Source: Nitrosopumilus sp. (lineage in GTDB: Archaea > Thermoproteota > Nitrososphaeria > Nitrososphaerales > Nitrosopumilaceae). From it: a DNA stretch of 64,000 nucleotides. The first letter of the stretch is position 1. Every line of letters begins with the position of its first letter. Position numbers: made by a program. Positions 24,001 through 33,000 of this stretch are shown one piece after another. The stretch lies in the NCBI GenBank assembly GCA_965207445.1, contig CBDBLX010000002.1:480001-544000 (forward strand), written 5' to 3'.

Positions 24001-27000
24001 TCTCTCATATTTTCGTGGTATCTCTATACCATCTGATGCAACGACCTTTAATCCATTATACTCTGGTGGGTTATGTGAAGCTGTGATCATTATTCCTCCT
24101 ACATAATCTTGTGGAAATTTTTTTATCTCATATTGGAGGCAAGGCGTTGAGATCATGCCTGCAATCGTACAATTAATGCCTGCATAACTTAATGATGCTG
24201 CAATGGCATTGCATATGAGATGTCCTGTACTTCGTCCATCATATCCTACAAGTATGGATTTTCTTGTATTTTCATTTTTGATTGTCATATGTGTTCCAAT
24301 CGTTGATGCCATCTCAGAGATGAATTCCAATGTAAAAAAATCATGTTCCAATATTCCTCGTATGCCGTTTGTTCCAAAGTACGTATTGTTGCCCATTATC
24401 ACTTTTTTTAATACTGACAATAGATAAATTTGTGTTCTATATAATGTGTGACGCGGGAGTTGCCAAGCCTGGTCAAAGGCGTAGGGCTTAGGACCCTATC
24501 TTTTAGGAGTTCGTGGGTTCAAATCCCACCTTCCGCACCAAAATTACCCATTCATGTATTTTATAATTATATTTTTAAATAAAATATGTGCGACATTAAA
24601 CTCATAATTGTTAATAGTTTTTAAAATAATTATTACTCGAATAAATTTCAATCTCTATTGTTTGTTGGCAAATAATAAGTTCAAACTTGCACATTTATGA
24701 GAATTGCACAACCTAAACTTAACTGTCTAATTTATTGTCATATGTATACTTGGATTAATTTTATTTTATACGTTGGTGTTGGATATAAAGTACTTGAAAT
24801 AAAACAACACAATCAAAAAAGTGACTAAAAATGGATGTTATATATTACTGCAAAAAAGGTGTGAACCAACCTGTTTTGGCATAATAATAAAATCATACAC
24901 ATTTAAGATTTATCATCAGACAACGGACCAATGATTTCACACAATTTATCTCAGACATTTAGTCCCCGTAGATTCCACGTCTCAACACAACTAAGTTTAA
25001 CACAGAGACTTTCTGCCCCTTGCAATTCTTTAACTTACTAGCTATTTTTTGCTCAAGTCACTAAATTTTCTTTTTCATATTTTATTTTTAATTTAATACA
25101 TACATCATCTGCTTTGTCTGGCCTTTTTGACTCATAGTGTTGGTAAAAAAATTTGATTATACAAATGTATTTATTATTTCCAATAATTTAGATAAATTAA
25201 TTTAAATATAAAAAAATACAATCATTACAAAACCTCAAAATCCAAATTATCTTTCATATTCAAATTTTAAATGATATATTAGTCAGGAAGGTTGGTTCAC
25301 GCATTTTTGCATACTATAAATGAATATATTTTTGACTTTTCCTAGAGGAATAGTTACGCACCGCATTTGAGATCATGCCATGCATATATCAAAAATGATC
25401 ATAGGTTATTTACAACTGATTCATGACCTTGATCTGGGTTAAGATTTATGAGCGTCGCTATACTCTTGCGTCTGTTGTCGCCTCCTTTGCCCCTACGCAT
25501 TCAGTTTTGATCGGTCTCACTCTAGATGGATTCTTGCCAATTTCCATAAAATAAACGCGAATCAAAATTTACGAAATTGTTATAAATACGTGTTTTGAGA
25601 GTTAATTATTGAATAAAGGAGCATTATATGGTATTATTGGTGCTGCAATTGCAATTGGTATTGGTATTGCTGTAGTTGCATCTATGGCACCTGTTGACGA
25701 TCAACCAGCACTTCCTACTGTTCCAGTGGATCCACCTCTAGATGATGCTCCTCCTGTTGATGATACTTCTATTGATGATGTCACATCTGATGTAGCACTA
25801 GTTGATGTTGGTGTCTTGTTGCCTGCAACAGGTGATTTGACAAGCCATGGAAACGAGAACAAACTTTCACTAGAACTATCAGTTGAAGATTTCAATCAAT
25901 ATCTAGAAGATAAAAATGCTGACTGGCGTATGAACCTTGTAATAGAGGATACCCAATCTGATCCAATCGTTGCACTAGAAAAAATTCAATCCCTCAACTC
26001 TAAAGGAATTAAATATGCACTTGGTCCAGAATCTAGTGCAGAGACTCGCAACATTATGTCATATGCAGATTCTAATGATATGATTATTCTCTCACCCTCC
26101 TCAACGTCACCGAAACTTGCAGTTGCAGACAACATATTCCGCTTTGTACCTGATGATACAATACAAGGCAAGGTAGTCGCAGCACTACTTGCTGACAAGG
26201 GAATAAAGGTCGTAGTGCCAATATATAGAGGCGATGTATGGGGTGATGGACTGTTTGAGTCCACACAAATGTCATTTGAAGAGATGGGTGGTATTATAGC
26301 TGATCCTATACGCTTTTCACCTGAAATTACCACATTCTCTACTGAAGCTCAAACCTTATCTGTTAGTATAGATCGACTCCACCAAGATTATGCAGCCGGT
26401 GAAGTTGGTGTATTTGTAATTGGATTTGATGAAATTGTACACCTGTTTAACTCTGCACTTGAATATGATAACCTAAACAACGTACCGTGGTTTGGTGCTG
26501 ATGGTAATGCTGGTGCAAGTACAATCGTTGATGACCCACGCTCTGCAGAGTTTACAACTAATGTTGGATTTATTGCGACACAGTTTGCAGCATCTGACAA
26601 CGAGGTATTTGAGATGGTAAGATCAGACTTTGAAGCACACACTGGGAAAACCCCAAGCAACAACTATGTCTATTCATCATATGACAGTCTGTGGGTCTTG
26701 GGACTCTCAATGGAAAAAGTTGGATTTAATGCACTTGACATAAAGGAACAACTTCCAGCAACTGGACTAGAGTATACGGGAGCACTTGGTACTGTTATAC
26801 TAAATGATGCAGGAGATTTGGCCATTTCAGACTATGAGTTGTGGTCTGTTATAGATGGTGCGTGGGAGCCTACTGCTAGATACAATGCCGCAACTGGTGA
26901 GATTGTAGGTTATGATGATGGAATGATGATGATGGATGGACAAATGATAGTTGATGTTGGTGTCTTGTTGCCTGCAACAGGTGATTTGACAAGCCATGGA

Positions 27001-30000: not shown

Positions 30001-33000
30001 AACCTAAACAACGTACCGTGGTTTGGTGCTGATGGTAATGCTGGTGCAAGTACAATCGTTGATGACCCACGCTCTGCAGAGTTTACAACTAATGTTGGAT
30101 TTATTGCGACACAGTTTGCAGCATCTGACAACGAGGTATTTGAGATGGTAAGATCAGACTTTGAAGAACTCACTGGGAAAACCCCAAGCAACAACTATGT
30201 CTATTCATCATATGACAGTCTGTGGGTCTTGGGACTCTCAATGGAAAAAGTTGGATTTAATGCACTTGACATAAAGGAACAACTTCCAGCAACTGGACTA
30301 GAGTATACGGGAGCACTTGGTACTGTTATACTAAATGATGCAGGAGATTTGGCCATTTCAGACTATGAGTTGTGGTCTGTTATAGATGGTGCGTGGGAGC
30401 CTACTGCTAGATACAATGCCGCAACTGGTGAGATTGTAGACTATTGAGTCTTTTAACAGTAACTGGATTAAAGAAATCCTTTGGTGGTATAGCTGCCCTA
30501 GCCGGTGTTAATGTGGACTTGATTCCAAATAGGATTAATCTCTTGATTGGTGCAAATGGTTGTGGCAAATCAACTCTAATAAATACAATATTTGGGTTAT
30601 GGCCTCCAGACGCTGGTACTGTCACACTTCGTGGTAAAGATATCACCGGACTGCCTCCAGACCAGATATATCATGGTGGAATAATGCGTACATTTCAGAT
30701 TCCAAAACACTTTGCTGGTCTATCTGTCATGGAGAATATGTTAATGGCTCTTCCTGATCCTGGGGAAAAATTCCGTAAAGCACTATTACCTTCACAATGG
30801 AGGGCAAATGAAGCTCGCCAAACAAAAAAAGCACTGAAAATATTGGAATCTTTGGAACTGTTGCATCTAAAGGACTCGTTGTCATTTGAAGTTTCTGGAG
30901 GGCAGATTAAACTATTGGAACTAGGAAAGACTCTGATGACTAATACTGATATTATCATGCTCGATGAGCCTATTGCAGGAGTAAACCCTACTCTTGCAAA
31001 CAAAATATTCTCAAAGATTAGAGATATGTTAGATGAGAATATTACATTTCTTATTATTGAACATCGTCTAGACATTGCTTTAAAATACTCTGATCATGTA
31101 TTTGTTATGGATCATGGACGGATAGTTGCAGATGATCATCCTGACCACATACTTGAAGACAAAGTTGTGCAAGAGTCGTACCTCGGAAAGTGATGAATAT
31201 AATGAGTGTGTCAAGTCCAATTATGAGTGGTAAGAGTGGTTCTACTGCTGAAAAAATAGATACAAGCACCGCAGTCAAGATATCAAATTTAGTATGTGGT
31301 TATGGAAAAAATCAGGTTTTACACGGGGTGGATTTTGAAGCCAACATGTCACAGATAACTGCTATTGTAGGATCAAACGGCTCTGGTAAAAGTACATTGT
31401 TAAAATCTCTTTTTGGACTTTGCGATGTGAAATCTGGCTCTATCAATGCTCTGGGTAAAGATATAACACATATTCCAACACATGCAATTTTACGGTTTGG
31501 AATATCATACATGGCACAAAGAAAGAATGTATTTCAAAATCTCACACTCAAAGAGAACCTTTCAGTAGTGGCAGGTACAGGTGATGCAGAACGTGCCATG
31601 GAACAATTCCCTGAACTAGTACCTTTCCTTGATCGTGTATCTGCAACCCTTAGTGGCGGACAAAAACAACTCCTTGCAATGGCAATGATGTTAGTATACA
31701 AACCTAAAATCATGCTCTTTGATGAACCTACTGCTGCATTATCTCCAAAGAATTCATCAGTTATAATTGAAAAGATAAAAAAACTTAACGCAGCACACGA
31801 CAGCTGCATCATACTAGTAGAGCAGAATGTAAAGGCTGCACTCAAAAACTGTGACAAGGTATACTTACTTGCAAGTGGTAATGTTGTGTATAGTGGTGAT
31901 CCGGCAACTTTGCTTGCTGACAAAGATCTTGCCTCAAAGTATCTTGGGATGTGATGATGTGAATGTCGATAATACTCTTTGATGGTCTCATATATGGATC
32001 AGTTCTTGCTGTTTTATGTGTAGGGCTTACACTAACTTACAAGATAACAAGTGTTCCTAACTTTGCACATGCCTCTTTTGCAATACTTGGAATGTACATG
32101 ACACTAGTGGTTGCTAAAGTATTTGAAATATCAGTATATGCCGCGCTACCACTTGCATTTCTTGCATCAGGTGCGCTATCACTGTTTATGTATTATGGTA
32201 TCATACGTATACTCCAAAAGAAAAAGTCGTCTTTAATATCGCTGATAATTGCTACATTGGCATTTGATATATTCATGATCGGCATTCTGAACATCTTTGC
32301 AGATGGACTACGTAATACGTATCAGATTCACTCTCGTGATTTTACACTACGGAGTTTTGATATAGTTGTTGGCGGAGATGGTGGCATGCCGTTAGTGTTC
32401 ATTGCAGCAATTATAATTCTCGCAGGACTTGCATTGGGATTGTATTATCTACTATATAGGACGAGCTTTGGAATAAGTATGAGGGGTGCTATAGAAAATG
32501 AAACCCTAGCTCAAACACTTGGAATAAACACCCAACTGATATTCTCATTTGGTTGGTTTGTCAGCGGTGGACTGGCAGGAATAGCAGGTGTGTTGATGGC
32601 AATGTGGTTTCAAGGAGACCCAAGTTTAGCTGCAATAATGCTTCCGAGTATATTTGCAGGAAGTATAGTCGGTGGATTTTCAAGCATATATGGTGCAATA
32701 TTAGGTGGGCTTTTAGTTGGTGTCTCAGAGGTAGTGGGAACAAGTGTACTTGTTGATATTGTAGGATACTGGGTTATATCATACAGGCCAGTTATACCAT
32801 TCATTGCAATGATCGTGACGCTGATGGTGCTACCTGGTGGCCTCATACAGATAATAACAAAATATTCACGCTCAAGGGCCTCCAAGCCCAAGACAACTGA
32901 TAACAAGAGTGTGTCCAAAAGTGAAAACGATGATCAAAGAGGAGGAGCAAACAGATAATGGCACTTGATCCTGCTGTAATATTTATCGGTGATCTGATCG

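Follow-up and report, generated by a model that had tools for sequence, protein, structure and literature searches.

The described systems closest to the locus reported here are the LIV-I importer of Escherichia coli (LivJ/LivK with LivHMGF; HAAT family), GlnPQ of Lactococcus lactis, and the livKFGHM transporters of sponge-associated archaea. According to passages on the binding domains of GlnPQ, SBD1 and SBD2 are arranged in tandem, are joined by short flexible linkers and act independently (PMC8025302). For the sponge archaeon Nitrososospongia ianthellae, a gene with "three consecutive livK domains" was mentioned (Moeller 2019, PMC6790972), and cell-level experiments with 13C/15N label demonstrated assimilation of branched-chain amino acids (BCAA) in sponge ammonia-oxidising archaea with livKFGHM (Glasl 2026, PMC13552627). 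In the main-text passages concerned, these two papers give the architecture one sentence and do not report on unit identity, homogenisation, copy-number change, linkers or anchors (PMC6790972, PMC13552627). The words 'tandem', 'repeat' and 'domains' are absent from the main text of Glasl 2026, where the livK set was restricted to 350-470 aa (PMC13552627).

Here we describe a receptor with four binding domains from Nitrosopumilus sp., encoded in a window of 64,000 nucleotides, which is the whole stretch of DNA that was analysed. The initial annotation of this locus regarded free-standing multi-domain receptors as uncharacterised. This holds for their biochemistry, of which we found none in the literature searched, but the idea of a multi-domain livK gene is not fully new, as it is preceded by the brief mention in Moeller 2019 (PMC6790972).

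Architecture of the receptor gene and its operon

The poly-receptor gene and the genes that follow it comprise these features (window positions):

25581..25589, + strand: TATA-like element TTATAAATA, read from the sequence, with the TTG start about 20 nt further on
25609..30447, + strand: poly-receptor gene, 1612 aa, TTG start, TGA stop (ORF call and Pfam)
25609..25800, + strand: leader, residues 1-64, a hydrophobic helix (residues 5-25, approximately) and, after it, a Pro/Asp-rich stalk
25801..26907, + strand: binding unit 1, residues 65-433, membrane-nearest (repeat units, pairwise identity)
26353..26382, + strand: unit-1-specific patch, unit codons 185-194, within a helix of the AF2 model (predicted)
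26908..26949, + strand: linker 1, GYDDGMMMMDGQMI (protein sequence)
26950..28056, + strand: binding unit 2, residues 448-816 (repeat units, pairwise identity)
28057..28131, + strand: linker 2, GY(DDGMMM)3GEPMV, encoded by an 18-nt tandem repeat
28132..29238, + strand: binding unit 3, residues 842-1210 (repeat units, pairwise identity)
29239..29331, + strand: linker 3, GY(DDGMMM)4GEPMV, encoded by an 18-nt tandem repeat
29332..30438, + strand: binding unit 4, residues 1242-1610, DNA identical to that of unit 3
30444..31193, + strand: ABC ATPase, LivG/UrtD-like, start overlapping the receptor stop by 4 nt
31190..31954, + strand: ABC ATPase, LivF/UrtE-like (ABC_tran, NCBIfam comparison)
31963..32958, + strand: permease BPD_transp_2, LivH/UrtB-like (Pfam, NCBIfam comparison)
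32958..34073, + strand: permease BPD_transp_2, LivM/UrtC-like (Pfam, NCBIfam comparison)

All four units are LivJ/LivK-type binding domains of 369 aa. Two Pfam families, ANF_receptor (4e-114, 381.8 bits against a cut-off of 25.4) and Peripla_BP_6 (5.5e-93, 312.8 bits against 31.7), each match in four stretches, and these scores above the gathering threshold place the units among the cluster-B / class I substrate-binding proteins. The ORF call, Pfam and the conservation of the N-terminal hydrophobic helix (kept at the N-termini of P0002, P0004, P0005 and P0107) agree with the initial annotation of a single four-domain polypeptide. The position of the TATA-like element, about 20 nt from the TTG codon, is suggestive of an archaeal transcript that is leaderless or nearly so.

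Judged from the sequence, the single N-terminal helix would anchor the chain at the membrane; it could instead be a cleaved signal peptide. A C-terminal anchor is absent, with the chain stopping 2 residues past unit 4, and the poly-receptor has no C-terminal CFI-box domain with a transmembrane helix (NCBIfam NF041770). The relative P0010 does carry the CFI-box-CTERM domain (66.6 bits against a cut-off of 40), and two anchoring modes occur across the family. The three linkers all differ in length, and 40% of the residues in the Met/Asp linkers are methionine. Linkers 2 and 3 are built of DDGMMM repeats, as had been proposed for all of them; linker 1 is GYDDGMMMMDGQMI.

The genes directly downstream are those of a LivHMGF-type (HAAT-family) importer, two ABC ATPases and two BPD_transp_2 permeases, and Pfam confirms this previously described arrangement. 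The 2 permeases (331 and 371 aa) match BPD_transp_2 only, and no further BPD_transp_2 match occurs in the genome. The genome therefore has a single Liv-type translocator, and the poly-receptor is probably its receptor. The poly-receptor is translationally coupled to the importer, whose first gene it overlaps by 4 nt; this overlap and the order of the ABC genes are common to this genome and L009. All five proteins fall short of the NCBIfam equivalog cut-offs for Liv and Urt, and the ATPases and permeases score about equally with Urt and Liv models, always below cut-off. A creatininase gene is located 1.1 kb downstream.

Number and evolution of the units

The initial annotation had cautioned that the copy number might reflect assembly collapse or expansion. 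We compared sequencing depths in Logan contigs from four runs of one sample, in which the repeat is collapsed into a single contig of 1110 nt. The collapsed repeat has depths of 73.1, 127.8, 107.5 and 52.7, and the unique flanks, in the same run order, 21.2/13.5, 29.4/42, 26.5/26.1 and 12.1/12.2. The repeat thus lies at 3.6-4.3 times the mean flank depth in all four runs (k-mer depth), a ratio that supports four copies of the unit, with contig depth being a rough measure rather than a copy number and the runs possibly being the assembly's own source. Linker-specific junction pieces are present at about single-copy depth.

Repeats of 1.1 kb with 99-100% identity are difficult for assemblers, the gene lies no more than about 60-440 nt from a contig end in all three related loci on short contigs (L010-L012; 3.5-24.7 kb), and NCBI labels 2 short members of the P0004 cluster 'partial'. 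We nevertheless consider it extremely unlikely that the unit number is an artefact of an expanded or collapsed repeat: besides the depths and junctions, the unequal linkers and the private differences in units 1 and 2 distinguish the copies, and relatives on contigs of 2.1-2.3 Mb also have 3-4 units.

The four direct DNA repeats start 1149, 1182 and 1200 nt apart. Their pairwise protein identity, previously given as 93-98%, is 99-100%, and their DNA varies at 14 of 1107 positions. The DNA of units 3 and 4 is identical, differences private to one copy occur in units 1 and 2, and a single 30-nt patch in unit 1 accounts for 10 of the 14 differences. The same region sets unit 1 apart (columns 184-194) in P0001, P0002, the P0004 cluster and P0003, and at column 185 both P0001 and P0002 have T in unit 1 and V in the remaining units. 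The patch is missing from P0005 and P0006.

In a phylogenetic tree, units group by protein or species and not by position (SH-aLRT 99-100). A clade of first units, named for this test after the tree was seen, is rejected (lnL difference 461.6, p-AU 3e-54). Synonymous differences between units amount to 0-0.031 in the poly-receptor and 0-0.015 in its L009 orthologue, and the two orthologues differ from each other by pS 0.885 and pN 0.112; the flanking genes are 74-83% identical between the two genomes, with conserved synteny. The orthologues, 76-81% identical, each have their own self-identical array. As the units group by species and the unit-1 patch recurs among orthologues, an older array kept alike by gene conversion fits better than the recent tandem duplication initially proposed.

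Independent and very recent duplications in each lineage, with unit identity reflecting youth and no homogenisation, would explain the identical DNA of units 3 and 4, the varying unit number among close relatives, and the single-unit receptors at the same operon position in sister genomes. We regard this scenario as quite improbable, because three orthologous lineages, 76-81% identical, all have 3-4 units, the patch occupies the same columns in four lineages, down to the T/V difference at column 185, and ten differences within 30 nt of a near-identical unit are a poor match to uniform mutation after duplication.

Multi-unit receptors are more widespread than the 'small unnamed clade' of 27 hits (E<=1e-30) first reported. 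Our search yielded 66 long homologues (64 with E<=1e-30), of which 57 have 2-7 units, and at least two units occur in 79 of the best 150 cluster representatives. In most multi-unit homologues the units have diverged. One 90%-identity cluster mixes three-unit proteins of 1217-1225 aa with a four-unit form of 1603 aa. In four of the five sister genomes checked, single-unit frames of 417-457 aa lie about 1.46 kb before two permease genes, a spacing that equals the span of the two ATPase genes in the poly-receptor operon. One unit thus suffices in sister species, which speaks against taking an advantage of four for granted.

Predicted fold and probable ligand

The AF2 model of a single unit (pLDDT 95.2, pTM 0.92) predicts a two-lobe alpha/beta clamshell resembling LivJ/LivK. 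The best solved neighbours in Foldseek are leucine-bound and Leu/Ile/Val-binding proteins and GABA-B ectodomains (E 1e-19 to 2.7e-23; TM 0.80 for 3td9 and 0.73-0.76 for 4q6b, 4n0q and 4gnr), and binders of GABA, pyroglutamate and aromatic acids are also among the structural neighbours. In sequence, the unit is only about 17-22% identical to solved proteins. In a model of two units, pLDDT remains 92.4, but pTM is only 0.57 and the linker falls below pLDDT 50, so the units are predicted to be independent domains on flexible linkers.

To compare ligand positions, the unit was aligned to LivK (1usg) and LivJ (1z15) using phmmer. S79, T102 and E226 of LivK, which we take to contact the alpha-carboxylate and alpha-amino groups, align to S86, T109 and D241 of the unit, and S86 is invariant across 32 relatives (alignment A1). 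Of the aromatic residues that presumably line the side-chain pocket in LivJ/LivK (Y/W18, Y150 and Y202), Y150 aligns to W154, Tyr/Trp18 is replaced by H23, and Y202 aligns beside a gap with F216 adjacent, which leaves its equivalent uncertain. With H23 and this uncertain equivalent, the specificity may depart from that of LivJ/LivK. Four residues vary among the units, none of them at the aligned ligand positions.

The units probably bind a branched-chain amino acid or some other alpha-amino acid rather than urea. Urea, amides and amino acids had all been suggested initially; of these, amino acids are favoured by the conserved positions aligned to the LivK contacts, by the failure of the unit to match any UrtA model at E<=1e-5, and by BCAA assimilation in a sponge ammonia-oxidising archaeon with the same operon type, as far as the passages on this experiment go (Glasl 2026, PMC13552627). 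The only NCBIfam match of the unit at this threshold is the LivJ-type model PRK15404, at 45.5 bits and below the cut-off of 477. A nitrogen compound other than a branched-chain amino acid (urea, an amide, GABA, pyroglutamate, a small peptide or a different amino acid) would be compatible with the similar Urt and Liv scores of the sub-cut-off ATPases and permeases, with H23, with the GABA, pyroglutamate and aromatic-acid binders among the structural neighbours, and with the nearby creatininase gene, but in view of the points just listed we consider such a ligand unlikely.

Proposed function and comparison with known transporters

We propose, as the probable overall explanation, that the gene product is the tethered, four-headed cognate receptor for the one Liv-type (HAAT-family) importer that the cell has, homogenised within the gene. 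The N-terminal helix would hold the chain, and the Pro/Asp stalk and Met/Asp linkers would extend four identical, independent clamshells below the S-layer like beads on a string. Each domain would most likely bind a single alpha-amino acid, with leucine, isoleucine, valine or a similar compound as the probable ligand, and pass this amino acid to the LivHM-like permeases. Four sites per translated chain and per anchor would raise the receptor concentration near the transporter without extra membrane area, which should speed capture when substrate is low. Gene conversion or unequal crossing-over within the gene would keep the units identical and also shift linker length and the number of units, which is 3 or 4 in close relatives, with the short unit-1 patch escaping homogenisation. 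The multiplication of capture sites put forward in the initial annotation is thus retained as the most sensible reading of identical units on one chain coupled to the sole Liv-type importer.

We consider it highly improbable that the chain mainly serves at the surface as a sink or sensor, sequestering host amino acids (and modulating host BCAA levels, for instance), or as a scaffold under the S-layer, with delivery secondary. Sensors also use the ANF_receptor fold, a chain with four high-affinity sites would act as a ligand buffer, and a passage in Glasl 2026 (PMC13552627) speculates that symbionts modulate host BCAA availability. However, Pfam finds no signalling domain in the poly-receptor, the overlap and ABC gene order are conserved with L009, and an ordinary single-unit receptor occupies the same operon position in sister species.

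Ammonia oxidisers of this kind are copper-dependent. We speculate that the tethered receptor of the Liv-type importer might combine three properties, a joint reading that we find somewhat unlikely as a whole. The array could act as an evolvable gain control, in which recombination keeps the heads identical while adding or removing heads and linker repeats, so that capture capacity for host-derived amino acids is quickly tunable with specificity untouched. The membrane-proximal head could have a distinct job, for example as a docking or hand-over unit, its surface-helix patch staying distinct against homogenising pressure in several lineages. Perhaps the unusual Met/Asp linkers have a second function and bind Cu(I) or scavenge oxidants at the surface.

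To our knowledge, the old question of why ABC importers have one, two or four binding sites has been studied almost solely on GlnPQ. The close relatives described here offer a series in which the same head occurs once to four or more times in the same operon type, so how uptake depends on receptor number and linker length is directly testable; the unit-1 patch naturally directs attention to a surface with a special function. For sponge symbiosis, the transporter linked to BCAA-based mixotrophy has a multi-headed chain as its receptor. Because short-read assemblies break within the gene and length filters of 350-470 aa leave it out, surveys and livK phylogenies may miss or misplace it.

Compared with LIV-I of E. 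coli, the poly-receptor has the same Pfam families, the same predicted fold per unit, conserved positions at the aligned alpha-amino-acid contacts, and the same partner set of two BPD_transp_2 permeases and two ATPases. It differs in its low identity to solved proteins, in missing the NCBIfam cut-offs, and in the His in place of Tyr/Trp18; LivJ or LivK is one free periplasmic protein, whereas the poly-receptor has four units on one chain that appears to be tethered. With the sponge-archaeal livKFGHM systems, it shares the archaeal family, the operon type and the multi-domain idea, as far as these are covered in the relevant passages (Moeller 2019, PMC6790972; Glasl 2026, PMC13552627). GlnPQ resembles it, in the passages on its binding domains, in placing tandem domains on one polypeptide and hence more sites next to one translocator (PMC8025302). 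The two GlnPQ domains belong to another fold class, are fused to the permease and are unlike in specificity and affinity (PMC8025302), whereas the poly-receptor consists of four class-I domains, 99-100% identical, encoded by a separate gene as a free-standing chain with what is probably its own N-terminal anchor.

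Receptor gene and unit number

The receptor, P0001, is a single chain of four LivJ/LivK-type binding units joined by linkers, encoded as follows (window positions).

25609-30447, + strand, receptor open reading frame, TTG start, 1612 residues
26908-26949, linker 1, GYDDGMMMMDGQMI
28057-28131, linker 2, GY(DDGMMM)3GEPMV
29239-29331, linker 3, GY(DDGMMM)4GEPMV

Four direct repeats in the gene start 1149, 1182 and 1200 nt apart. With unit borders set by a phmmer scan in which the first unit was the query, the protein comprises four units of 369 residues (residues 65-433, 448-816, 842-1210 and 1242-1610), and Pfam places four ANF_receptor and four Peripla_BP_6 stretches on it, confirming that four binding domains stand in tandem on one chain. 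The units are 99-100% identical pairwise at the protein level. Their DNA varies at 14 of 1107 positions; 10 of these 14 differences are packed in one 30-nt patch of unit 1 (window 26353-26382), and units 3 and 4 are identical. N-terminal to unit 1 lies a 20-residue hydrophobic stretch followed by a Pro/Asp-rich stalk, and only two residues follow unit 4.

Methionine accounts for 28 of the 70 residues (40%) of the combined linkers, and an 18-nt sequence is tandemly repeated in linkers 2 and 3 (3.3 and 4.3 copies). The linkers become longer with distance from the anchor (14, 25 and 31 aa). Met-rich segments of other proteins bind Cu(I). Inter-unit linkers with ‘MM’ occur in 12 of the 31 relatives compared; they are acidic and otherwise unrelated in sequence. 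A Met-rich linker as a general family feature was rejected: when the best 150 representatives were surveyed, methionine fell outside the ten commonest linker residues of those with several units. A scan for sigma-70 promoters and terminators is inapplicable to an archaeon, and its matches merely recur with each unit.

The copy number was assessed in Logan contigs from four runs of one sample, which contain the receptor locus with the repeat collapsed to a single 1110-nt contig. The depth of this contig (73.1, 127.8, 107.5 and 52.7) is 3.6-4.3 times the mean depth of the unique flanks (21.2/13.5, 29.4/42, 26.5/26.1 and 12.1/12.2 in the same runs), a check that is independent of the assembler, although contig depth is a rough measure and the assembly possibly derives from this sample. 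At the junctions, short pieces unique to individual linkers have approximately single-copy depth. Both observations support the four copies of the initial annotation. Parts of the array left uncovered in the Logan contigs are due to repeat collapse and were rejected as evidence of absence. Three or four units are present in relatives on contigs of 2.1-2.3 Mb. In the three related loci on short contigs (L010-L012, 3.5-24.7 kb) the receptor gene always lies within about 60-440 nt of a contig end, and the 90%-identity cluster of the homologue P0004 has seven short members of 100-409 aa, two of them labelled ‘partial’ by NCBI; short-read assemblies therefore tend to break within the receptor gene. 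Word shares of the sponge metagenome runs X1 and X2 (0.18 and 0.09) are uninformative on habitat.

Binding unit, ligand and anchoring

An AlphaFold2 model of one unit, built with 31 single-domain relatives, has a pLDDT of 95.2 and a pTM of 0.92. Its best solved structural neighbours are LivK of Thermotoga (3td9, TM 0.80), Leu-bound binding proteins (4q6b, 4n0q), LivJ (4gnr, 1z15) and GABA-B receptor ectodomains (E 1e-19 to 1e-23, sequence identity 15-22%). We compared the ligand site by phmmer alignment of the unit to E. coli LivK (1usg) and LivJ (1z15), using the residues that we take to be their ligand contacts (S79, T102, Y150, E226, Tyr/Trp18 and Tyr202). S86 of the unit, which is invariant in the 32-sequence alignment, corresponds to S79, S107-S108-T109 to G100-A101-T102, W154 to Y150, D241 to E226, and H23 to Tyr/Trp18, the residue that tunes specificity. 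The position aligned with Tyr202 adjoins a gap, and its equivalent is uncertain.

Among the NCBIfam models, none for UrtA matches the unit at E<=1e-5. Assimilation of Leu, Ile and Val by sponge ammonia-oxidising archaea with livKFGHM is reported from stable-isotope and NanoSIMS work (Glasl et al., 2026; PMC13552627). Based on the contact alignment, the absence of a UrtA match and this published assimilation, our best guess for the ligand is an alpha-amino acid, probably a branched-chain one, rather than the urea or amides also proposed in the initial annotation.

In a two-unit model both units are confidently folded (mean pLDDT 92.4), but the linker has a pLDDT below 50 and the pTM is reduced to 0.57, which fits units that are flexibly strung together and behave independently, like beads. 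The homologues P0002, P0004, P0005 and P0107 keep the N-terminal helix. In many relatives, the N-terminus is instead short and resembles a signal peptide, and the C-terminus extends into a tail of some 150 residues; such a tail is conserved in the two- and three-unit relatives P0010, P0012 and P0020-P0038. In P0010 the tail scores 66.6 bits against CFI-box-CTERM (cut-off 40) and has a hydrophobic helix at its end, and we take the CFI-box-CTERM-type tail as the predicted second anchoring mode of such chains. Because each of the relatives compared has a hydrophobic segment suited to anchoring at one end only, we infer that the N-terminal helix of the receptor is an uncleaved anchor.

Operon and family

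The first downstream gene starts 4 nt before the receptor stop codon, so that the two overlap, and the order after the receptor is two ABC ATPases and then two BPD_transp_2 permeases. These four proteins resemble both Liv and Urt components and fall below every NCBIfam equivalog cut-off. The 2.6-Mb genome has no BPD_transp_2 match besides the two permeases. A binding receptor with permeases is a textbook pairing. Elsewhere in the genome there is an orphan paralogue of 456 aa (53% identical) with no adjoining transporter, and a 427-aa frame of the window shows 31% identity. A 1088-aa frame of the genome (L006, G000:C2:1105276-1109394) has one binding domain at its C-terminal end, preceded by about 500 residues that match no Pfam family at 1e-5.

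The closest relatives are in MAGs labelled Nitrosopumilus sp., Nitrosopumilaceae or Thaumarchaeota. In L009, the corresponding locus on a Nitrosopumilus MAG chromosome, a phosphoglucomutase-like gene precedes the same five genes, as in the window, with protein identities of 79.3% (receptor), 74.7% and 74.4% (ATPases), and 78.1% and 82.7% (permeases). Four of five sister genomes checked have a single-unit frame (417-457 aa, 55-57% identical) about 1.46 kb before two permease genes, a spacing equal to the span of the two ATPase genes in the window. The single-unit receptor at the same operon position argues that the poly-unit form is derived from an ordinary operon receptor.

A tRNA-Leu gene (window 24453-24540, + strand) precedes the receptor gene by 1.07 kb, and about 1 kb after the tRNA gene is devoid of open reading frames of at least 60 aa. 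Since tRNA genes are often integration sites, the liv operon may lie at an acquired-DNA junction. Directly 3’ of the permeases (window 34346-36038, + strand) are a formyltetrahydrofolate-deformylase-like gene (ACT + Formyl_trans_N) and a creatininase-family gene; creatinine use by sponge archaea is a topic of discussion in the literature. The G+C content of window 44001-60000 is 0.42-0.49, compared with about 0.37 in the rest of the window.

Among proteins of 886-2821 aa, to which the homologue search was limited, 66 long homologues were found at E<=0.001 (64 at E<=1e-30), and 57 of the 66 contain two or more units exceeding 280 aa, with a maximum of seven. The family is thus larger than the small clade first described. 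All units are at least 95% identical in only four of the 57 (P0002, P0004, P0010 and P0023); in a further three, one pair or more reaches this level. The units of most multi-unit relatives are 25-88% identical, and chains with such diverged units therefore probably combine different specificities.

Near-complete units per protein among the best 150 representatives of a 50%-identity library; ranking by summed score favours multi-unit proteins.
0 units: 2 proteins
1 unit: 69 proteins
2 units: 60 proteins
3 units: 12 proteins
4 units: 3 proteins
5 units: 3 proteins
6 units: 1 protein

Within Nitrosopumilaceae, 92 of 401 sampled genomes, from 16 of 27 genera, have a match at E<=1e-40 (up to four matches scored per genome), and the matches listed include at least 15 genomes in which a single open frame holds two or more units. 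Six genomes (G052, G043, G145, G083, G089 and G113, of the genera coded g2 and g18) have 24-50 first-look candidates for the binding domain, which indicates large family expansions in some Nitrosopumilaceae. With P0040, from the 5-7-unit relatives, as query, no related locus and no match in 401 genomes of the phylum were found. The design extends beyond archaea, since one MAG with a deltaproteobacterium label contains a two-unit relative. P0016, P0018 and P0044 are fusions of a single unit, 60-73% identical to that of the window, with a matrixin-type (Peptidase_M10) metalloprotease motif and, in two of the three, also with a plastocyanin-like domain. Through such fusions, the capture of amino acids may be linked to extracellular proteolysis.

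Origin of the array and known systems

A quick-search tree was built for 72 units taken from 25 proteins. In it, P0001, P0002 and the P0004/P0107/P0110/P0115 group each have their units in a separate clade (SH-aLRT 99-100). A constraint that unites the first units of four proteins in one clade, a grouping chosen after inspection of the tree, costs 461.6 log-likelihood units (p-AU 3e-54). Synonymous differences among units are 0-0.031 in the window and 0-0.015 in L009, whereas the window receptor and its L009 orthologue differ with pS 0.885 and pN 0.112. The receptor is therefore under purifying selection, and compared with the species split its units are much younger, or much more homogenised.

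Simple independent duplication in each lineage, or the recent tandem duplication initially proposed, is opposed by a unit-1 patch common to several lineages. In P0001, unit 1 deviates from the others at alignment columns 185 and 188; in P0002, 10 of 19 variable columns lie at 178-194; in the P0004 cluster columns 188 and 191 deviate in all six members examined, and in P0003 columns 185, 189, 191 and 193. At column 185, both P0001 and P0002 have T in unit 1 and V in the others. In the L009 DNA, synonymous and non-synonymous differences cluster at the patch site. Unit comparison found no patch in P0005 and P0006. The common patch indicates that an array with a distinct first unit is older than the patch-bearing lineages, and that the remainder of each unit has been overwritten repeatedly within each lineage since they split. 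The patch may persist through selection on the membrane-proximal unit, or its divergence may block conversion tracts. Unit number varies within one 90%-identity cluster, from three (1217-1225 aa) to four (1603 aa). The earlier interpretation thus holds in outline, and is revised on substrate, array origin and clade size.

The multi-unit architecture itself has been seen before: alongside the expressed livK of a sponge archaeon, a gene with three livK domains in a row is mentioned (Moeller et al., 2019; PMC6790972). The words tandem, repeat and domains are absent from the main text of Glasl et al. (2026), where the livK set is described as limited to 350-470 aa. Our literature searches for free-standing receptors with several domains yielded no biochemical study, only GlnPQ/OpuA-type or unrelated work. 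New here are a four-unit array that is homogenised and varies in unit number, a conserved patch in unit 1, linkers of Met and Asp, and two predicted ways of anchoring. Mechanistically, the nearest model is GlnPQ, described as having two different tandem domains that are fused to the permease and act independently (PMC8025302). In contrast to GlnPQ, the receptor belongs to another fold class, is a separate anchored protein, and has more units, which are identical.
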